Assembly: GCA_951406725.2 (NCBI GenBank)
Contig: OX597815.1
Location: 113,770,001-113,834,000 of the forward strand
Length of the DNA: 64,000 bases
Direction of reading: 5' to 3'
From: Octopus vulgaris
Lineage: Eukaryota
The notes below the pieces were generated by a model. It saw only the letters and a program-made list of their open reading frames with translations. It was not told where the DNA came from and made no database searches. Below, piece by piece: positions 19,782-64,000 of this stretch. Position numbers and translations under genes: made by a program. Each line of letters starts with the position of its first letter. Position 1 is the first letter of the stretch.

Positions 19782-22700
19782 TACTTTCTCTCTCTCCCTC
19801 TCTCTCTCTCTCACTCTCCCTCCTCTCTCTCTCACTCTGCAATTTTTCATTTGGTTTGGATGTGTTTTATGCATCACTCCTCCTTTTTCTGTTTAAAAAA
19901 AAATAGTCTGAAATATTTCTATTGGTTGAATACAAGGAAAAAAAAAAGAAAGAAAAGCAAAAAGGAAGAGAAAGTGTGAAAGTGTTTGTGCTGTGTGTTG
20001 ATGCACTTGCTCACATGTTGTATAGTGTTTTTATAACCATGTTTTGAGACATAGCTTGTTGATAACAATGCGTAACCATGATATTACACATTGATAACTT
20101 AAGTATACAACAAACTGCCTCTGGCTTCAAACCTTGCAGATTTATGGCTCATTCAGAACACCAGGGCCTGACTGTTAGCAGATTTAACTGTAGGGGTTAG
20201 GGATAGAAAGAGTGATTTGTGACAGCTGGAGGTAGTGGTGATAGTAGTAGTAGAAGCAGCAGGGAAAATTCAATAATGATGCTAATGAAAGATTCTTTGC
20301 CATTGCTGCTATTTCAAGAGACTGTGTTGCTGTATCTCAGTAAAATCCCTTTGAATGAGTAATATCAAGCTTCCTCGCTCCCATTCATGTAATCTCCAAT
20401 GTCATTTTTAAGTACCTTACACTTACTGATGTTAAGTGATAGTGACGGTGTAAGGAGTTATTATTGCTTGTAGTAGTTATTCAGGTATGATAACAGGAAT
20501 GTAAAGCAAGATTGTGTGATGTTCATGCCCTTCTTAAAGACAATCACAATGACAATCACTTCTGAATGTATCCATGTTCAGTCCCTGGATAAATAATGTT
20601 AATTTCTTACATTGACACAAGACTACACATTCTATGAATCTATGGGGGAACCTCTTCATAATCATTCAAACTGCTGGAAGTAGCAGCCAAATCTTCTAGT
20701 TAGACCTGACTCATAAAGAATTCTTAAAGAAAGAGCTTCAGTAAAATGCAGTGTTTTATATATAATCTGGAAGAGAAGTGTGAGAATAGTAACACCTTTG
20801 GTCATCAGGCTGGTATGCTCAGTCAGTGCTCACCTGGGGCTAGACAACATCAACAAATTTGTAAAGGGACTATATCTAGGAGATTGAATTGTTCATTTTA
20901 ATACAAGTAATGAATTGAAGAATGAAAAGCAAAGTCAATTCTACCAGGGTTTATTTGTCCCTTATCTTTTACTTGCTTCACTCACTGGACTGCATCCATT
21001 CTGGGGTACTGCCTTGAAGTTTTCAGTCAAATAAATTAACCCCAGAACTTTTTTTAAGCCTGGTACAGTACATATTCTACTGGTCCCTTTTGCCAAACCA
21101 CTCAGTTACCAGTACATAAACAAACCAATACCAGTAGTCAAATGATGGTGGATGACAAACACATACACACACACACACACAGCAGGATTCTTTCAGTTTC
21201 CTTCTTTCTAATCCACTCACAAGGCTTTGGTCAGCCCAAGGCAGTAGTTGAAGACACTTGCCCAAGGTGCTATGTAGTGGGACTGAACCCAGAACCATGT
21301 GATTGGGAAGCAAACTTCTTGCCACACATTTGGTTCTTTACCTCATCATTTCAAATTTTAACTATGATAAGATTAATAATAAATTTCAATTCTCACTAAT
21401 TGTGGTAATTTGTAGCAGAATCAGTAAATTACTGAACAAAATACTTTGTGGCATTTGGTTATGTCTTTTACACATGCTGAATTCACATTTAGCTCAGGCT
21501 GACTTTGAGTCTCACTCTCCTCTGGTTGATAAAATAAATACCATCAAAGTCCTGGGAGTCACTATAATTAACCATATCCTTGCAGGAGATAACCCAGTAT
21601 GGCTACATCCAATGTCTGAAATCAGTAAAAGAATAGAGGTGAGCTATCAGTACACTGTTTCCTTCAGTTATGGATGGAATGCTTAATGCAATATCCATCA
21701 TTCTAACAAGGCATCTATGTCAAGTTGAATATAAAAATTACCTTTTGTTATTAATACTGCTTCCATCGCTAGTAATTAATTTTTAACAAATCTGATTGCT
21801 CTTTGCAACATTAATATTTTAAATATTGTTGATATTCTATATATTGTAGCAGTGAAATTTGACTGGCATGCAATGACCGGATGCTTCTCATTGGTGATTT
21901 CCTGTTGAATGAAATCACATGATATGGGAATTCCAGAACCCATGACAGACAATTTTTGCCTGCTACAATCTGTGTGTGTGCTTTTATGTACCAAGCACCT
22001 ATATGAGGGGATCTCTCATGGCTAATAATGCGGTGTTTGGTGTTCTAACAAGACATCCATATTAAGCCGGATAATGGATTAACATTCATAGACTCTAATA
22101 GACCAGCAATAAATTGTCATTCATGACAGAATCTGGGTAGCAGAGATTCACCTACTCCATTCCATCTCCAATCACGTATGAACTGAAGGAATTGTTTCTC
22201 CTATGTTGAAAACTTAACTTTTAATCAACTTATTATTATTTTTATTTTATTAATGATGATGATGATGATGATGACTACAACAACAACAACATTGTCAGCA
22301 TAAAATTATTTTAGTGCTGGAAGAAGCCCAAAATCTGAAGTAGGAAGAGAAGCTTTGTCTGATGCCTCCCATCTCCACTCAGTGTTACACAATGTTTTCT
22401 GTCTGTGAAACGAGTCATTTCAAAGTATATAAGAGTGAAAAAAAACACACTATATTAACAATTGATTGCCCTGACCCCAAGACCATCTACAAATTGTAAC
22501 TTCCCTTTTCTAAAACAGGAAATAAATATTATGTTCCATTCCACTTGGCATTTTTAAATTAGCAGCAAGTAACTCTTTTAGCAGTCAATTGGCACTAGGT
22601 CATTCCCATCTGAGGAAAGAACATGCCAGTCAAAACTTGGCTGTGTCTGAATGATGTAAAATATTTACAATATTCTTCCTTACTAATTAAGAAAATAGTA

Positions 22701-22864: not shown

Positions 22865-23084
22865 CTCTTTCGTTACTGTATTTATTTTGAGATGCTCTGT
22901 GTTTCTTTCAATTACTTTAAATATAATAAATAATTTAGTAAAATAACTTAATTATCATTAAGCTAGTGTTAGGAACATAAATTGTGACGAAAGTTTGGTG
23001 GAAGATTTTAATTCAAAACTTATGGAAACAAGACATTTGTACTCAGAGCCAGAGCCGGTTTCAGCCGGGTTGGTAATGAAAGGG
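22865..23084 (+). mobile_element. TTAA-flanked (piggyBac-like) MITE family 1, copy a
   Basis: TTAA-CTCTTTCGTTAC...GTAATGAAAGGG-TTAA; near-identical to copies at 44029 and 33519. Confidence 0.88.
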
Positions 23085-24110: not shown

Positions 24111-24220
24111 TTAATGTTTGGTCTTGGAGTATATTAGAGAATGATTGATAGGATTTGAGCAAGATCTTTCACTGTTGTGAGATGCACCCTGCATAGTAAG
24201 TAGGCGAACTATATTCCAAA

Positions 24221-24440
24221 GGCGGCGAGCTGGCAGAAACGTTAGCGCGCTGGGCGAAATGTTTAGCGGTATTTCGTCTGTCGTTATGTTCTGAGTTCAA
24301 ATTCCGCCGAGGTCGACTTTGCCTTTCATCCTTTCGGGGTCGATAAATAAAGTACCAGTTTTGCAACTGGGGTCAGTGTAATTCCTTTGTCCTTGTTTGT
24401 CCCCTCTATGTTTAGCCCCTTGTGGGCAGTAAAGAAATAT
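24221..24440 (+). mobile_element. tRNA-derived SINE family A (best-preserved copy; Meta/Sauria-like core gactttgcctttcatcctttcggggtcgataa)
   Basis: A-box-like tggcagaaacgttag, B-box gagttcaaattcc and a conserved core. Many decayed copies occur across the window, e.g. 23089-23296, 8385-8590, 21400-21620. Confidence 0.85.
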
Positions 24441-25059: not shown

Positions 25060-26075
25060 TCTGATTTAGGCACAAGTCTAGCAGTTTTACAGAGAGAGAG
25101 AGTTAGTAAATACCATTGACCCCAGTACTTGACTCATACTTTAATTAATTTATTGATCCTGTGGGGAATGGAAGGCAAAGTTGACTTTGATGGGATTTGA
25201 ATTCAAAATATAATGTGTAGGAAGAAATGACTGCAAAGTATTTTGTCCAAGGTGCAGGAGTGGCTGTGTGGTAAGTAGCTTGCTTACCAACCACATGGTT
25301 CCGGGTTCAGTCCCACTGCATGGCACCTTGGGCAAGTGTCTTCTATAGCTTCAAGCTGACCAAAGCCTTGTGAGTGGATTTGGTACACAGAAACTGAAAG
25401 AAGCCTGTCGTGTATATATGTGTCTGTGTTTGTCCCCACCAACATCACTTGACAACTGATGCTAGTATGTTTATGTCCCCGTAACTTAGCAGTTCAGCAA
25501 AATAGAATGATAGAATAAGTACTAGGCTTACAAAGAATAAGTCCTGGGGTCAGTTTGCTCAACTAAAGGCAGTGCTCCAGCATGGCCACAGTCAAATGAC
25601 TGAAACAAGTAAAAGAGTAAAGAATGCTCTAATGATTCTGTCAGCTCACCATCTTTGGTTTCTAATTTAGGTAAAAGGTGAGCAATTTTGAGGTGAGTTG
25701 GTTAGTTGATATCACCAACCCCAGTACTTTATTTTATTGATCCTAGAGGGATGAAAGGCAAAGTTGATTTCAGTGGAATTTGAACTCGGATTGTAAAGAG
25801 CCAGAACAAATAACACAAAGTATTATTCTAATGCTTTTGCTAGCTCATCACTTTCAAGTAATGATTATTTTTATTGTAGGCACTAGGCCTGAAATATTTG
25901 TCTGGGGTCCCCTCCCCCTTTCCCCAGTGCTCAACTGGTACCTATTTTATCAACCCTGAATGAATGAAAGTAAAGTCAACTTTGGCAACATATGAACTCA
26001 GGTTGTAAAACCAGAAAAAATGTTGCTAAGCATTTTGTCTGACATGCTGACAAATCTGCCAGCATGCCATCTTCA
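25060..26075 (-). mobile_element. Cluster of three family-A SINEs (minus) with a nested family-B SINE
   Basis: The host copy is split at 25250/25622. Confidence 0.8.
25251..25622 (+). mobile_element. tRNA-derived SINE family B, near-full-length
   Basis: Head ggagtggctgtgtggtaag...ggttcagtccc, core ggcaccttgggcaagtgtctt, internal (TG)n, tail gaaacaagtaaaaga. Other copies at ~9795 (+), 11270 (-), 12465-13180 (-), 15220 (+), 20960-21330 (-), 27220 (-), 39146 (+), 42340 (+), 57915 (+). Confidence 0.88.
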
Positions 26076-33518: not shown

Positions 33519-33740
33519 CCCTTTTGATACCAACTTGCCTGAAATTGCCTCTGGTTCTATAATACAAATGTCTTGTTTTCATAAGTTTTGAATTAAAATC
33601 TTCCAGTAAACCTTAGTCACAATTTATGTTCCTAACACTAGCTTAATGTTAACTAAGTTATTTTACTAAATTCTTTGTTATATTTAAAATTAATTGAAAG
33701 AAACACAGAGCATCTCAACAGAAATATGGTAACAAAAGGG
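33519..33740 (-). mobile_element. TTAA MITE family 1, copy b (inverted)
   Basis: TTAA-CCCTTTTGATACC...GGTAACAAAAGGG-TTAA; reverse complement of copy a. Confidence 0.85.
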
Positions 33741-35067: not shown

Positions 35068-35146
35068 TTATTATTATTATTATTATTATCATTATCATTG
35101 TTATTGTTATTATTATTATTATTATTATTATTGTTGTTATTATTAT

Positions 35147-35595
35147 TAAGGTGGCAAGCTACCAGAATTGGTAGCATGTCAGATGAAATGATTTGTGGTA
35201 TTTCATCTGCCACTACATTCCAAGTTCAAATTCCACCAAGGTTGACTTTGCCTTTCATCCTTTTGGGGTCGATAAAATAAGTACCAGTTGAATACTGGAG
35301 TCGATGTAATCGACTCATCCTCACCTCCCCCAAGCTGCCCTTGTAGCAAAAATTTGAAATAATTATTATTATTATTATTATTAAGGCCGCAAGCTGGCAG
35401 AATCGTTAGCACACTGGGTGAAATGCTTAGTGGTATTTCATCTGTTGCTACGTTCTGAGTTCAAATTCTGCCAAGGTCGACTTTGCCTTTCATCTTTTTA
35501 GGGTTGATAAATTAAGTACCATTTGAGTACTGGGGTTGATGTAATTAACTATCCCACGCCTCCAAATTTCAGGCTTTGTGCCAATAGCAGAAAGG

Positions 35596-35637
<42 letters not shown>
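35147..35637 (+). mobile_element. Two tandem family-A SINEs separated and flanked by (TAT)n
   Basis: Copies at ~35150-35360 and ~35385-35597. Confidence 0.85.
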
Positions 35638-40790: not shown

Positions 40791-40856
40791 ATGACAGAAG
40801 GCCGCAAAACACAGGTTATTTTGCTGGATGAAAACAGGCTTGATATCACCATACAG
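40791..40856 (+). CDS. FRMD4: FRMD4A/B-like exon, start of FERM F1 lobe: MTEGRKTQVILLDENRLDITIQ
   Basis: Acceptor ttttcAG and donor CAG|GTAAAT; 66 nt, phase 0/0. Closely resembles human FRMD4A MTEGRRCQVHLLDDRKLELLVQ (recalled sequence). Confidence 0.93.
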
Positions 40857-43350: not shown

Positions 43351-45560
43351 GTGAGTAAGTGGTGCATAGAACCAGGGACACAAGACAATTTGGAGAAGAA
43401 AGTAGTGAAAGCTGAAAGAGCCTTCAGTCAGATGTTGATTCATAGAATTGCTAGTTGATGCATTTTAATGAGAAGGAAGAGGAGATATTTACAACAAAGG
43501 AGACAACTGGGAGTTTCTGTGAGACAGCCTACTGCAAACTACAGACCATATCTGTGAATGGAACAAAGTTGCACCCAACTACAAAGGTGACATAGTGGTG
43601 GGATGGTATAATAGAGCCATAAAAGCTAATCTGCAAGCCTAGATAGAATAGAAGAAAATGGGGAGCAAGCAAAGAGCAAAATTAAATAGCCAGAACAGAA
43701 GTTGGGTATCAGGTATCTTTAACAAAGAAAGGAGCTTATTGTACAAGATAAAGCAATGTTCTGCAACATGAGAATCATAGGTATGGGCATTGTAGTTTGT
43801 AAAACAGTGTGCATGTGAAAATCAGGTTGTTATTGAAGACATTAGTTGAAAAGTGCATATGAAATTATTGCTGTGCACTCGCCCTAATTTATATTAAAGA
43901 GAAAGGGACATGGAAATGATATGACAAGAGATTGCTAAATAAGGAAAAAGAGGAATTGCTCCCAACTAGACCCAGCAGAGGGACCAGTTACTGAAGTTGA
44001 CAGGCTATGCTGTTAAAAGAGCCATTAACTCTTTCGTTACTGTATTTCCGTTGAGATGCTCTGTATTTCTTTCAATTACTTTAAATATAACAAAGAATTT
44101 AGTAAAATAACTGAGTTATCATTCAGCTAGTGTTAGGAACATAAATTGAGACTAAGATTTAGTGGAAGATTTTAATTCAAAACTTATGAAAAATACAAGA
44201 CATCTGTATTACAGAGCCAGCGGCAGTTTCAGCCGGGTTGGTAATGAAAGGGTTAAAGATAATGAAGGCAAAGAAAGTAGCTGGACCTATGGATAATCAA
44301 TAAGACACTGGAAATAGCTGGCAAAGTAGAATATGTGCTGGTCCCTTAGATACTCTGTTGGGTAGCATAGAGAGGTGCCATCTTTAAAAATTGACATAGC
44401 CATCAACTGCAACAAGATTAATTTATGTAAGTAGCATAGTAAGTTAGAAAGATAATTAATTTAAATGAGATGCAGTTCAGGTTTGTATCAGGGGGTTGTA
44501 CCACTAACACCCTCTACTTAGTGTAACAATTACAGAAAATGTTCTTAGCTAAGAACAAGCCATTCTGCCTCACATTCATTGACCTGGAGAAAGCCTTTCA
44601 CTGAGTTCCACACTCTGATGGTTTCTCAGAAAACTAGGTGTAGCTGGCTTGTGAAAACTGTGCAAGGCATGTATGGAATTGCTGCCAAAAACATGAGTAA
44701 GCAACAATTTCAATAAGGAGCCTGTAGAAGAGTAAGACAGAAAGAAATCACAAAGGCTGACTTTCACAATTATGATGTCAAAGAGCTGCAACAAGTTGTT
44801 AGTTGCTCTACTGGTGAAGGCATCCCCTCACCCCTACAATCTTAGAGCAACAGGTATAAAAGGATGAGAATATCTGCCTGTTTGTCTCCTGTATGGCATG
44901 CATATGCATGTGTGTGCACACAAGACAGGACTCTGCTACCACCAGGGAAATGGCTTCACTTGGTGTGCTGAAAAAGAATGGATAGAAACTCCATAGCATG
45001 TACCCAGTGTAACCAATTGCTGACTGCCTGGGATCCTATGTAGCAGCAGAGGCAGAGGGACATTAACATAGTAACCTAAGTAAGAATGGGTTAGAAAAAG
45101 TTCAGGGTGCTACCACCTCTGTGACAAAGGGGAGGCAATAAATACTCTCAGAATGAAGGTTAGATTGTATGAAGTGCAGTGTACATGGTAGTGTGACATG
45201 GACCTTGAATGCAGGGGATTTGCAAAAAATTGAACGAAATGAAGTGAGAATGCTTTGCTAGATGAGTATTATTAATGTGAATGAGCAATGGAATACAAAT
45301 GAGCTGAGATAAACTGAGTAAAAGAGGATTCAGCTAGAGTATGCAAAAAAGAAGACTGCATATAGATGACAAATACTGCATAAAGATATGCTGAATATTC
45401 TAGGTGGACACTGCTTGTGGAAAGAAGAAAGCCTAGGACAGATGCTGAACCTCACAAAAGAAATGACAAGGGACTATAGCAGTTGATGGCATTGAGTTTG
45501 GGAGAAAACCTGCACTTTTGTGCAAGCATAGCCGAGACAACATTAAAACAGTTAGTGATG
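43350..45560 (+). mobile_element. Old degenerate RTE LINE remnant, interrupted by a TTAA MITE and other inserts
   Basis: 44470-44690 translates roughly as QFRFV..TT...QLQ..FLAKNKPF.LTFIDLEKAF.....LRKLGV. C-terminal RTE-like text follows at 45080-45540. Many stops and frameshifts. Confidence 0.7.
44029..44252 (+). mobile_element. TTAA MITE family 1, copy c, inserted in the RTE remnant
   Basis: TTAA at 44025-44028 and 44253-44256. Host text resumes as gccattaa|agataatgaaggc. Confidence 0.88.
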
Positions 45561-48500
45561 GTGGTTAGGATACTCTCACTGCACTCGTCCACTTCTCCCT
45601 CCTTTGTCTTTCAGTGACCTTCTTCCTGTAGCTTCTCTGTCACCCTAACACTACCTCATCTCCCTCTCTTTGCCTCATCAACCTCTACAATATCCTTACC
45701 TCTTGTTTACAAACCTTGTAGTGAATACATACATGTAGCTATTCCATTCTGTTGTCAATGTGCTGTAAAGGAGCCATTTTGTGGGAGTATATATAAGGTA
45801 TATTAAAAGAAAGATTATTTGAACCTCGAATTTTAACCAGAAAATTTCAATATTACAGCTTCTATATGGTAACTTGGCTTTAGAAATAGCAACCTTACTC
45901 CCTCAAATCACAGTCTGCTGCCTTAGAAAAGAACAAATATATTGAAGAGTGCAATCACAAGACATTATCTGAAATAATATGGGAGAGTCATAACTGGAAC
46001 TTCTTTGATTATAGGTCTGCTCAATTGGCTAATCTATGAATAGACAAGAACCAGAAATTTTCCTGTTGATGTACTTTTAAATGTTTTAGGTTTCTCCTTC
46101 TGAAAACCTTAGTTGACCATTCAATCAGTTATTCAATAGTATGTTCACATATACAACTTTAAAATTATTTTGATTTAATTATAAAGCCTGCTTAATCAAT
46201 TATTTAGGAGTTGTGTTGCTGCAGTGGGTTTATTCATTCATTTATTTAGTGATACTTTATTGAAGACATGATATGAATACTTCAGACAGACTTTAGCCAC
46301 AGAATAAAAATTCATATTCTGTACTTGTTCCATATACCTTGACATCATTCATTAACCCAGATGAAATTCTTCAGCTGATAGATTTGTTGTTTGGAATCTA
46401 TTTCTTTCTGTTTTGAGTTTTTGTTAATTTCTAGTCTGGTTATTGTAAATCATTTGGACCATTGTTATTAATGCTAATTTTGTATTGTTTACTAAGCTAT
46501 TGTTTGTATTGTTTGTTAGTAAACAGGAACACAGCCCAAACGAATTGTTTTTAAGTATCTTTTTATTTCCTTGTACTGAAAATAAAAATAAAACTAAAAG
46601 GAAAAGACATTATTCTTTCAGCATTTCATTTCATTACCACACCTATTTAGCATTTAAATTCTCTAAATCAATTTGTTATATCAAGCCTTAATGACATGGT
46701 AACTATGGTAGCAGCTAAAAAATATCTTTACTAAATCATACAGAAGATTGTATTCTTTTTCTTTCTCCTTTCATCATTTTTATGTATTGCACTGCAGAGG
46801 GTTAAAAGAAATGTTAAAATTTCAGAGATGTGTGTTGGTTTTCTTCAGTATTATGTAAATGGCATGCTACGCATCAAAAGAGGAAGTTTCTTTTTACGTA
46901 TTTTACAGCAAAATTAACATTTCTTTATTTAAGACATAAATGTTTTGATGCTTTGAAGGAATATTCTTCTTGTGTTAGAGAAGAATAAATATATAAAGAA
47001 AGGGAGTGTGTTGAAAAGAGAAATTTTACCCCATTGTTGATTTGAATTGAATCCAGTATTTTCAGATTAACATTTCTCACTTCTTAATAATAATAATAAT
47101 AATAATAAGAAAAAAATAATAATAGTTTCAAATTTTGGCACAAGGCCAGGAATTTTAGGAGAGGGTGCTAGTTGATTTCATCAACCCCAGTTCTTAACTG
47201 ATACTTATTTTATCGACCCTGAAAGGATGAGAGGCAAAGTTTACTACTACTAACAATAATAATAATAATAATAATTAATTCTGGTTTATTGGCCACAAGG
47301 GCTAACTAAAATCAAGAAAAACATGTAAGGACAAAGACAGGACGAAAAGTACAAAGGGTTTTGTCCGAAAGAAAGGTCCGTGTAAACATTCATAATGATA
47401 ATAATAATAATAATAATAATAATACCAACAACAACAACAATAATAATGCTTTCAAATTTTGGCATAAGGCCAACAATTTTGGAGAAGGGGATAAGTCGAT
47501 TACATCCAATGTTCAACTGATACTTATTTTATCGACCCCAAAAGGATGGAAGGTAAAGTCGACCTCAGTGATATTTGAATGAACTAATAATAACTAGCAG
47601 TACCTGTGGAAATTCCATGTTTGTTTTGTTTTTTTTAAATTGTACTATGGAATTGTATATTTTCTGAATCATTTGATTCTTGTGATGGTGTAAAAGTCCA
47701 CATAGATAGAATTGGAGGTGTAATCTCAGGAAACAATATCTCTGAAAGCTATATTCTTATGGCTTCTATTTTGTGAAATGTTCTCTATTATTTTTCATTT
47801 AACTGTGGAACATAATGAAAGCCATTATTATTCTGCTTCAGTACATTGGTAAAGTTTTAAGGAATCTTAATATGGATAATTAAAAAAATCTATAAAAACA
47901 CCATATCCTAAACCTTTTCATTCTTTCTCTTGTTAGCCAACACCTATTGTTGTCCATATTTTATAAACAAATATATTTTGATTGAGCAGACGATAATTAG
48001 TTGCACCAAAGAGCATGCATCAAGTGATAGTTGATATCAAAATTAAAAGACAAAAATAATATATCAAAAGCCTACACTTTTCACTGTTCAACCACTACTG
48101 CCACCTCTTTTAACCAATATCCCTATTGACTCCAGCACCACCACCACCACCATCATCATCACATCCTACTTATCTGTACCAAGGCTCAGTCCAAGTTATT
48201 TGCCAATCGAGATTGTTTTCACTTCTTTTCATTTCGACTATCTACCTGTTTGTCTATATATTTCTATCATGATGGGTTATGTATCTGCCTACTCTGACAA
48301 TATGGTTAAGCATTTAAACCTAATAATAATTTTAAAAAAGCATAAAATACTGCATAATGATGGTACCCTAGCATGAACACAGCCCTTGGACTAGAACACA
48401 CGAAAGAGTAACATCCACAACTATTTGCAAAGATTATTTCACATTAATTTAACTGTCTATCAATATGTCTAGCCATCCATCTTTCTCTCTTCTGTTGATG

Positions 48501-48699: not shown

Positions 48700-49540
48700 T
48701 GGTTTCAAAGTTTGGTCCCAGGCCAGCAATTTTGAGGGGAAGGAGCAAGTTGATTACATTGACCTCTGTACTTGCCTGGTTGTTATTTTATCAACCCACA
48801 AAGTAATTATAATATTAATTGTAATAATTCTTTGTAATTTTTGCACAAAGTCCACAATTTTAGGAAGATGGGATTAGTTAATTATATTGGCTCAAGTGTT
48901 CAATTGATACTTATTTTATCAATCCTGAAAAGATAAAAGACAAGTTAATCCTGGTATTCTTAGAACATTAAAAGCCATAAAAATTTCTGCTTATTTTGTA
49001 TGGCACATTGACGATTCTGTGGACTCAACTGCTTTAATAATAATAACAATAATAATGGTGATAATAATCCTTTCTACTATAGGTACAAGGCCTGAAATTC
49101 TTTAGGAGGGCTAATTATTAACATTGACCCCCAGTGCTCAAGAGGTACTTATTTCATTGACCCTGAAAGAATGAAAGATGAAGTCAACCTAGGCAGCATT
49201 TGAACTGGGACATAAAGACGGACAAGATGTTTAGTATTTTGTCCAGCATGCTAACAGTTCTGCAACTTGCCACCTTAATGATAATAATAATAATAATATT
49301 GGTTTCACATTTTGGCACAAGGCCAGTAATCTTGGGGGAGGAGTAAGTCAATTACATCAACCCTAGTGTTCAACTGGTACTTATTTTATCAACCTCAGAA
49401 GGATGAAAGGTAAAGTCGACCTTGGCAGAATTTGAACTCAGAACATAAGGACAGACAAAATACTACGAAGCGTTCTGCGCAGTGTAGTAATGATTCTGCA
49501 AGTTCTCCACCTTCCAATGATGATAATAATAATAATATTA
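48700..49540 (-). mobile_element. Head-to-tail array of about four family-A SINEs separated by (AAT)n
   Basis: Repeated ggcacaaggccag...tacttattttatcaacc...aagtcgacc...ttgaactc units on the same strand. Confidence 0.8.
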
Positions 49541-61975: not shown

Positions 61976-62545
61976 TGATGAGGACAGCTGCATAAAGAAG
62001 TGTCAAGTTCTAATTGTGGAGGGTGCCTGTGTTATGGGTAGACCCAGAAAGACACGGGATGAAGTGGTGAGAAAGGATTTTTGGATGCTGGGCCTCACTG
62101 AAGAAATAACAAGGGATCGGGAGACATGGCGATTTGCTGTATTTGATAAGATGCATCAAGCTAAGTAAAATTACTGTCTTCCATACATACAGGCTTGTCT
62201 TTCAGGTTCCAGTGCTACTTAAAAAGCACCTGTGACAGTACTGTATTAATGCACCCATGCCAGTGCTATGTAAAAATACTTGTACTGGTGGCATATTGAT
62301 ATGGACATATATAAATCAAACTTGACTCCAAGAACTAGGCAAAAAACTGATGACCTATTAGTGGGGAGTCCTGGAAAGAGAGGAAAACCTAAGATGAAGA
62401 AGAAATGCCGAAGTCAGAACTTAAGATGTTGGACCTTGCATAACAGATGATAGAAGACTGATACAGTTGAGAATATTCTGCACAGCATCCAAACCATGCT
62501 AGCAAGGAAAAATAACTAAAACATTGACAATGATGATGGTAGTGA
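61976..62545 (+). mobile_element. RTE LINE 3' end(s) with (GAT)n tail
   Basis: DEDSCIKKCQVLIVEGACVMGRPRKTRDEVVRKDFWMLGLTEEITRDRETWRFAV matches the RTE C-terminal GRPRKTW...DR..WR pattern. Confidence 0.75.
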
Positions 62546-62731
62546 TTGATATCTGTAATTTCAACACATCGAATATTCCAAATTGTTTCAAAACTTTTTG
62601 ATAAATATTTTTTTAACATAATAGAAATTTTATTTGCATTATAAATATCTTGAAACATTTTCTAAAACAGAAGAAAACGTGAATATTTTAAATTTGCTAT
62701 TAAATTATCCTTTTTTTATTGTTTATTGCAG

Positions 62732-62826
62732 CCAAAACTTTACACCAAAGATCTACTTGATCTTGTGGCCTCGCATCTTAACTTAAAAGAAAAGGAATAT
62801 TTTGGTCTATACTACTTGGATGAAAA
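62732..62826 (+). CDS. FRMD4: FRMD4A/B-like next exon (FERM-N): PKLYTKDLLDLVASHLNLKEKEYFGLYYLDE plus 2 nt
   Basis: Polypyrimidine tract with ttgcAG acceptor and AA|GTAAGA donor; 95 nt. Continues the previous exon in frame and matches FRMD4A PKLLAKELLDLVASHFNLKEKEYFG. Confidence 0.95.
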
Positions 62827-62915
62827 GTAAGATACATTTTTTTATATTTTCAACCGTCTTATTTATTTACATTATTTACATTTGACAGATATTTGTCCTC
62901 ATCTTGTTTGTTGTT

Positions 62916-62961
62916 AACACAATGTTTCGGCTGATATGCCCTCCAGCCTTCATCAGGTGTC
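62916..62961 (-). ncRNA. Minimal type I hammerhead ribozyme motif (Penelope-like-element type)
   Basis: Minus strand reads GACAC-CUGAUGA-A-GGCUG(gagggcauau)CAGCC-GAAAC-AUU-GUGUU. It has stem I GACAC/GUGUU, intact CUGAUGA and GAAA core boxes, a 5-bp stem II and a vestigial stem III (AACAUU, probably from palindromic AACGUU). Confidence 0.75.
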
Positions 62962-63209
62962 TTGGGGAAATTTCGAACCTAGGTTCTCAATCCTAAGATA
63001 TTTTTCGATGTTATTATTATTATTATTATCATTCTGGTCACTGCATGGAATCAAACTTGGAATCTTGGGGTTAAGAGCATGGGCTACTAACCCCAAGATT
63101 CCAAGTTCGATTCCAAGCAGTGACCTGAATAATAATAATAATAATAATAATGATAATAACATCGAAAAAATACCTTAGGGATCAGAACCCAGGCTCGAAA
63201 TTTCCCCAA

Positions 63210-63254
63210 GACACCTGATGAAGCCTGGAGAGTATATCAGCAAAACATTGTGTT
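63210..63254 (+). ncRNA. Degenerate hammerhead copy in the right palindrome arm
   Basis: GACAC-CTGATGA-AGCCTG...CAGC-AAAAC-ATT-GTGTT. The G of the GAAA box is lost and stem II is damaged, so it is probably inactive. Confidence 0.6.
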
Positions 63255-63510
63255 AACAACAAACAAGATGAGGACAAATATCCATCAAATGTAAATAATG
63301 TACGTAATTCCTCATCTCTTAAATATAGAGCTGTTTTATTTATAGTTTCTATATTCAAAAGATAAAATCTACTGCAACTGAATCTCTGTATTTGTTTACC
63401 TTTGTTTCAACTAAAAGCTACTATTGAAAATACTTGGCTCTTTTTAAATACTCAAATCTCAATGATCACTTTCTTTCATGTATATGAAACATACTGGTAG
63501 TATGGCATAA

Positions 63511-63979
63511 AGAGTCCAGAAAGAGTCCATGGCTACCCACATGGTTCATGGTCTCAAAAATGTTTCCTATGAAGAAAGGCTGAGGACGCTCAACCTTTAT
63601 TCTCTAGAAAAACGCCGCCACCGTGGTGATCTCATTCTCGCCCACAACATCATAAGCGGAAAGTGTAACCTCTCGAAAGAGCTGTTCTTCACTCCTGCTC
63701 CAGAGTGTCGGCTGCAGGGTCATTCCAAAAAGCTCTACCTGTGATGATTTCATCTCAATCGAAGGAGAGGAGCTTTCTCCGTCTGGATTGCGGATCCGTG
63801 GAACAAGCTGCCAGACGAGATAGTGAAGATGCCGACGACCGCTTTGTTCAAAGCCTCCCTTGACCTCAAGTGGCCTGAACTCTTTACATGAACACCACCC
63901 TGTACTTAACTCCATGTCCCCCTACATGGCCTTGCTATTTGCTTTTGAGCCAAATTAACTAACTAACTAACTAACTAAC
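63511..63979 (+). mobile_element. Second CR1-family 3' fragment with (AACT)n tail
   Basis: SYEERLRTLNLYSLEKRRHRGDLI...LQGHSKKL*...FSVWIADPWNKLP with a premature stop; terminal (AACT)n. Confidence 0.9.
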
Positions 63980-64000
63980 ATTAATGTTTCTGTAGTATTT

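Follow-up and report, generated by a model that had tools for sequence, protein, structure and literature searches.

An intron of Octopus vulgaris carries, 41 nt past the splice donor of an exon encoding the FERM N-terminal lobe, two arms of about 205 bp that are reverse complements of each other. Does such a hairpin serve the gene beside it, or is it there for reasons of its own? The first-pass annotation, made from the letters alone, described it as a candidate ADAR substrate or splicing modulator. We analyzed the hairpin within a window of 64,000 nt (assembly GCA_951406725.2, contig OX597815.1, positions 113,770,001 to 113,834,000, forward strand); coordinates below count from the first letter of this window.

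A Stable Hairpin Lies beside a FERM-Exon Donor

The host exon (62732–62826, plus strand) matches the FERM N-terminal lobe (Pfam FERM_N, E = 9e-10) and is followed by a GT donor at 62827 (62827–62832). Contig depth in X15, an RNA-like run, is 99.9 up to 62826 and stops there, that is, at the donor. A preceding FERM-domain exon, whose 3′ part lies at 40821–40856 on the plus strand, has a reading frame ending in ...LDITIQ before a phase 0 GT donor; we infer that it is joined to the exon at 62732 across an intron of about 21.9 kb. A PDB search returned generic FERM proteins only. We take the host gene to be FRMD4-like.

The two arms, 62863/62868–63073 and 63088–63302, align as mutual reverse complements. 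Of 205 aligned columns, 189 are Watson–Crick and 16 are substitutions (7.8%); another 16 columns are gaps, mostly from differing TAA-repeat length, and BLAST gives 86% over 446 columns with gaps counted. The 14-nt loop (63074–63087) is predicted to close further, to 4 nt, in the minimum-energy fold. Folding 62700–63340, a check of the kind proposed by the first-pass annotation, gave a very stable structure (−328 kcal/mol, z = −30; 0 of 20 shuffles equally stable). Predicted arm–arm pairing is 0.92; 125 of 150 adenosines are paired in the predicted duplex, and its longest helix is 40 bp. Alignment and fold together confirm the arms, the loop, and the start 41 nt past the donor. The coordinates originally assigned, 62868–63302, hold for the arms and fall short of the extent: The full insert with its target duplication occupies 62854–63343. 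Among 51 inverted pairs of at least 60 nt in the window, the hairpin is the only tight one, and the next-closest pair has 1.4 kb between its arms.

A Relative Carries a Precise Empty Site

Contigs of four public runs were aligned to 62450–63500 at 85% likeness: X7 (DNA, organism A), X13 (DNA, organism E), and X15 and X17 (organism A, RNA by guess). One 2,915-nt X13 contig aligns at 62450–62853 and, without gaps, at 63331–63485, joining 62853 directly to 63331 and so marking a precise empty site in organism E. The junction defines a target-site duplication on the plus strand, with its left copy at 62854–62866 (9-nt core, 62858–62866) and its right copy at 63335–63343 (63331–63343 counting microhomology). 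The duplication measures 9 nt with one mismatch, or 13 nt with two mismatches when the 4-nt microhomology is counted. A single duplication flanks the whole two-arm unit, both arms are jointly absent in X13, and the flanks of the insertion are AT-rich (25–27% GC). Compared with the right copy and the aligned empty site, the left copy shows T>C at both mismatches, possibly by chance.

Sampled-word shares of the stretch were 0.87 in X1 and 0.56–0.69 in X2–X8. The X1 share exceeds what the flanks alone would give, though X1 may be the assembly's own source. Those of X2–X8 (organisms A–D) fit either a present insert or an empty allele, so that polymorphism within or among close relatives is possible.

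The Hairpin Is One Copy of an Abundant Repeat Family

In the DNA runs X7 and X13, depth reached 1.0–1.7 million on the outer arms vs. 12–17 on the flanks, and 21,483 and 17,395 family contigs aligned in the two runs. Relative to the flanks, depth was 1–2 × 10^5 at the arm ends and 2–3 × 10^4 at the head—a several-fold drop towards the head—with these ratios serving as a rough indicator and not as a copy number. A family depth of ~10^5 times that of the flanks identifies the hairpin as one copy of a very abundant repeat and not as a gene-specific editing element. The 64-kb window holds no second family copy, its BLAST matches being TAA repeats only. Pattern scans for the element returned 0 matches in metagenome contigs (two scans) and 0 in viral contigs; 120 bacterial-genome pattern loci were rejected as chance 16-mer matches because none had a BLAST match to the element at E < 1e-3.

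Family contigs also record how copies are joined. Among the 15 joints listed of 164 in all, 9 pass from antisense to sense, at positions that vary; another 3 are tandem-type strand switches, and the other 3 skip within an arm. Family contigs have loose ends at 62863, 63302, 63329, and 63334, and those at 63302 and 63329/63334 define a tail of ~30 nt. Loose ends in the DNA runs have a median of 17–44 letters at the head vs. 255 at the tail ends; the short ones would follow if what adjoins a head is usually further repeat and not unique flank.

Anatomy of This Copy

Read from the center outward, each arm opens with a tRNA-like head and (TAA)n; a body comes next, then a hammerhead-like motif, and the end is A-rich. 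The center (63069–63092) is a 5-nt inverted repeat, 63069–63073 and 63088–63092, round the 14-nt loop and inside the tRNA-like head. On the right arm, the head spans 63069–63127 (plus strand), with a B box at 63105–63114, and is followed by an (AAT)n microsatellite at 63128–63159 (plus strand), whose left-arm counterpart is 63011–63033. In family contigs, the letters just upstream of 63069 fit the A-box consensus, which indicates that the A box has been lost from this copy. ARAGORN called 0 tRNA genes in the 64-kb window, leaving the head of this truncated copy uncalled, and Rfam on 62500–63600 gave 10 matches, all far under gathering scores and none of them tRNA or hammerhead.

The left arm (62863–63073, minus strand), delimited by the alignment and by family loose ends at 62863, is an inverted copy without the terminal tail and would be the product of a snap-back. 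The 32-nt terminal tail is confined to the right arm (63303–63334, plus strand), is bracketed by the family ends at 63302, 63329, and 63334, and has its last 4 nt in common with the target.

A scan of both strands found a single CUGANGA-stem-GAAA core in the window, and it lies in the left arm. By core pattern and fold, it belongs to a putative minimal type I hammerhead (62916–62961, minus strand) with a predicted helix I of 5 bp, CUGAUGA, a bulged A, a helix II of 6 bp, and GAAA. A second motif on the right arm (63210–63254, plus strand), recognized by fold and family letters, is more decayed, with changes at 63224 in helix II, at 63247 in helix III, and at the G of GAAA. At 62923 and its mirror 63247, both arms carry the helix III letter that is in the minority, with about 20% of family depth, which is what copying from one template would produce; the majority letter (78–87% in the DNA runs, and 81–87% at 62923) gives a palindromic helix III. 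The hammerhead fold alone is unexceptional (z = −1.35; 19 of 200 shuffles equally stable).

The insert measures 477 nt and overlaps no ORF longer than 86 aa, on which grounds an autonomous Penelope-like element was rejected; the 42 scanned of 82 listed window ORFs contained no RT or GIY-YIG match. Judged from its sequence, this copy is probably dead, with the A box missing and both hammerheads decayed.

Insertion Hallmarks Point to a Probable Penelope-Type Origin

Four features make a Penelope-type insertion the most likely origin: The arms meet head to head, only one of them carries a tail of ~30 nt, the target duplication is short, and the hammerhead motif is of the minimal kind. The typical Penelope insertion in PMC3846280 has head-to-head inverted pLTRs, 8–10-bp duplications, and a tail of 31 bp confined to one arm, and its junction palindromes are interpreted there as signs of self-priming. 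PMC8557442 agrees and puts the tail at 30–40 bp. The octopus insert shows each of these hallmarks: arms head to head with a palindromic junction, a 32-nt tail on a single arm, a short and variable duplication of 9–13 nt in AT-rich DNA, and a candidate minimal type I hammerhead whose helix III palindrome is seen in the family majority and is decayed here. For the Penelope pLTR hammerhead, PMC4209133 gives a helix I of 4–5 bp, a long helix II, a bulged base after A9, and a palindromic 15.2–16.2, and the family majority letters fit this minimal form; the same source places Schistosoma hammerhead pairs on opposite strands, 100–700 bp apart. In vitro, cleavage at AT-rich sites and initiation internal to the RNA 3′ end are reported (PMC11167929).

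We therefore consider it likely that the hairpin is a nonautonomous, tRNA-headed retroposon mobilized by a Penelope-like element, whose cDNA folded back into head-to-head arms and for which ADAR editing is a by-product. In this scheme, a source copy would be transcribed from its tRNA-type A/B-box promoter, and a Penelope GIY-YIG/RT protein would nick an AT-rich target and start copying the RNA at the tail (63334, the right end). The cDNA would stop at 63069, within the head, and its final 5 nt could pair there with the 5-nt match 14 nt back; the snapped-back cDNA would then prime its own copying into a left arm that ends short of the tail, and repair would leave the 9–13-nt duplication. Once transcribed within a pre-mRNA, the two arms would anneal to each other, undergo promiscuous editing, and be removed together with the intron. 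From 63069 onward, loop and right arm can be read without a break as a sense copy, and the start of the left arm coincides with the 5-nt inverted repeat; snap-back of first-strand cDNA at 63069 would give this arrangement. This cDNA snap-back would be a variant of the self-priming idea in PMC3846280, which favors self-priming on an antisense template.

Family loose ends before 63069 offer an observation on the head itself: The full family head apparently opens with a small inverted repeat of its own. That repeat, 5′ of the one used here, is likely the default snap-back point.

Relation to Known Elements

The closest architecture is that of the Adineta Pen2–Pen6 Penelope insertions (PMC3846280; PMC8557442), which share head-to-head arms, a palindromic junction, a one-arm tail of ~31 nt, an 8–10-bp duplication, an AT-rich target, and a hammerhead in the repeat. 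The octopus insert differs from them in having no RT-endonuclease ORF and in its tRNA-like A/B-box head, which replaces a pol II-type pLTR promoter. Schistosoma SMalpha/Sjalpha (PMC8490949) are likewise short SINE-like retroposons with a type I hammerhead; here, however, the hammerhead is of the minimal, zero-loop kind, the arms are head to head, and the tail is of Penelope type, an architecture that we did not find described for SMalpha in the available text.

Metazoan non-LTR retrozymes (PMC7761336; bioRxiv 10.64898/2026.07.22.740005) are noncoding, carry a hammerhead, and have been proposed to be nonautonomous Penelope derivatives. They are described as head-to-tail tandem monomers giving circular RNAs, whereas the copy here lies in an intron, is dispersed and tRNA-headed, and has inverted arms; we rejected this class because the arms are inverted and only 3 of the 15 listed joints (of 164) are tandem-type. 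The palindromic Harbinger repeat of Xenopus tropicalis (PMC5625713) is similarly self-folding with a short loop and needs no neighboring inverted copy for hyper-editing, but it derives from a DNA transposon, whereas the element here is retroposed and is a predicted ADAR substrate. Helenus TRIMs (PMC10886601) offer a tRNA-derived pol III promoter in a nonautonomous element independent of LINEs and differ in their two direct LTRs, PBS, PPT, and dependence on LTR elements.

By the SINEBase description (PMC3531059), a SINE is shorter than 700 bp, noncoding, and of high copy number, as is this family with arms of about 210–265 nt. Of a tRNA-derived head with A and B boxes, the B box at 63105 and A-box-like family letters were seen, and ARAGORN and Rfam called no tRNA on the truncated copy. 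A simple-repeat 3′ tail, as borne by SINEs that LINEs mobilize, is absent from this element, which ends in a defined 32-nt tail without simple repeat.

Ohshima and Okada reportedly described the octopus tRNA-derived SINEs OK, OR1, and OR2 in 1994. A tRNA-derived head and high copy number are common to those SINEs and the present family, which we set beside them by description only; the 1994 work is cited in PMC4758252, PMC4824008, and PMC3531059. The family is perhaps one of these SINEs, or stands under another name in Repbase or Dfam. Short nonautonomous Penelope elements are already in print (PMC6685494). In the literature searched, which most subscription papers lay outside, we found no description of a tRNA-headed, Penelope-mobilized cephalopod family; by that literature the family is a new-looking variant, and it is almost surely already in repeat libraries.

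Other Origins of the Palindrome

Several other histories could leave a palindrome in an intron. A MITE descended from a Tc1/mariner-type DNA transposon, and palindromic like the edited Harbinger repeats of Xenopus, would also be short, noncoding, and self-complementary, and the full end of this family is followed by A/T-rich letters; it presumably reads like a mariner CAGT end after TA. The duplication, however, is 9–13 nt rather than TA or any fixed short length, and the terminal 32 nt are missing from the left end; on these two points we rejected the MITE class. Inversion points that vary from copy to copy, a depth that falls several-fold towards the head, and the B box and hammerhead core carried by the element also argue against such an origin, which we regard as quite unlikely. 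An assembly or library fold-back artefact might be suspected from X7, an independent organism A run that has no contig cover beside the insert and among whose listed contig pieces none spans the hairpin. Yet the arms differ by 16 substitutions plus indels, several of them family alleles; the insert has a target duplication and an asymmetric tail; and the X1 word share, allowing that X1 may be the assembly's own source, is higher than flanks alone would give. The first-pass annotation had argued from the arm mismatches that the hairpin is no artefact, a view borne out by the target duplication and the X13 empty site, and we give the artefact practically no weight.

Arm divergence raises a different difficulty. 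The arms differ at 16 of 205 positions, and the flanks differ from X13 at 18 of 559 (3.2%; Fisher P = 0.01), an excess that weakens when four CpG-linked changes are removed (P = 0.09) or when intron-only flanks are used (P = 0.21). Arms that were identical at insertion, after the species split, would not readily account for this excess. Three histories would fit: an insertion shortly after the split followed by faster decay, an older insertion that organism E lost precisely, or the copying of an already diverged palindrome as a whole. The last option belongs to a reading in which two independent SINE insertions lie back to back, or a palindrome of greater age was copied as a unit, so that the arms already differed on arrival. 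It would explain why 7.8% between the arms exceeds 3.2% in the flanks, but one duplication surrounds the whole unit, both arms are absent together in X13, the center has exact 5-nt snap-back geometry, and the divergence excess is not significant without the CpG changes. We judge prediverged arms very unlikely, and an older palindrome copied as a unit would still be Penelope-type retroposition.

Editing Is a Likely By-Product, without Support for a Role in the Host Gene

That the hairpin is a plausible ADAR substrate, as the first-pass annotation had proposed, is upheld by the number of paired adenosines, by the 40-bp predicted helix, and by a family-wide A>G/T>C excess in one of the two RNA-like runs. 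Comparison of X15 with DNA covered 16 well-covered variant places, with five low-depth rows (63042, three at 63242, and 63243) left out. At three of the 16, the variant frequency in X15 exceeded that in each DNA run 10–54-fold, and all three are A>G or T>C: 62936 (A>G, 24.5% in X15), 62955 (A>G, 16.2%), and 63279 (T>C, 31.4%). At a fourth place, 62938, where the family has A, G makes up 19.7% in X15 vs. 2.0% and 0.65% in DNA. Other variant kinds rose at most 1.8-fold in X15, and X17, RNA by guess, showed no A>G excess. These data suggest that family transcripts are edited in some samples; the signal is family-wide rather than locus-specific, and X15 is RNA by guess without matched DNA.

For the exon, the proposal had been that the hairpin could recruit ADAR to recode it or alter use of the donor. 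Predicted pairing between exon and element has a mean probability of 0.03, so no editing-complementary sequence was found there, and predicted pairing of the donor with the element is at most 0.10. The X15 exon contig, at its depth of 99.9, lists no A>G variant; since rare variants are lost from contigs, this result speaks only against majority recoding. In organism E, which lacks the hairpin, the exon has one synonymous change (62779) and encodes the same peptide. Exon recoding or splice control by the hairpin thus finds no support.

A structure selected in this gene, recruiting ADAR to recode the FERM exon or tuning its donor, would fit the position 41 nt from the donor, the very stable duplex, its standing as the sole tight hairpin in the window, and the 8 A–C mismatches on the transcribed strand. 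These mismatches, however, stand against 2 G–U (P = 0.11) and so show no G–U bias; a relative whose exon encodes an identical peptide lacks the structure; it is predicted to pair hardly at all with exon or donor; and the X15 exon adds weakly to the case. Squid repeat editing, moreover, is mostly intronic or in UTRs and ubiquitous, apart from neural recoding (PMC9068888), and PMC5625713 reports the palindromic repeat as the most edited family in Xenopus and hyper-editing as rare in coding regions. We consider selection for a role in this gene unlikely. ADAR editing of the hairpin RNA as a passive by-product of a probably Penelope-driven retroposon is the likely course.

Wider Meaning and Other Repeats in the Window

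For the host gene, the retroposon reading implies little: an ordinary, probably dead retroposon copy in an intron. Its interest lies in the family. Octopus and frog are the strongest hyper-editors in PMC5625713, where the frog's editing is partly explained by its palindromic repeat and octopus was not included in the repeat-annotation analyses. The present family, self-palindromic and of high copy number, may serve ADAR as a bulk substrate and offers a direct, testable candidate for octopus hyper-editing. We advance tentatively, as a possibility with the odds somewhat against it, the broader proposal that a SINE-like family of ~10^5 copies, with a tRNA (pol III) head and mobilized by Penelope rather than LINE machinery, seeds ready-made short-loop hairpins in introns, because that machinery builds head-to-head palindromes, and is a main source of octopus hyper-editing, and that its palindromes may be lost precisely via their target duplications. 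A tRNA-headed element bearing Penelope insertion hallmarks would add Penelope-like elements to the LINEs and LTR elements on which the SINE-type parasite strategy is practiced, and its many short insertions with known junctions would form a large natural data set for the Penelope mechanism, including tail, inversion, and self-priming.

The window holds other repeats, which we take to be octopus SINEs. At least two further dispersed SINE-like families lie in both orientations within 9797–50190 (for example, 21067–21328, 24195–24399, 25265–25616, 35124–35620, 47112–47579, and 49129–49513) and account for 50 further inverted pairs of at least 60 nt, at least 1.4 kb apart, which makes long-range dsRNA potential common in the host gene. 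A young repeat at 22916–23041, 33563–33688, and 44080–44192 has copies that are 93–95% complementary, inverted, and about 10 kb apart. Just past the hairpin, a plus-strand repeat fragment at 63545–63980, with two ORF pieces that have no Pfam match, ends in (TAAC)6 at 63956–63979 and is, we presume, a LINE 3′ fragment.
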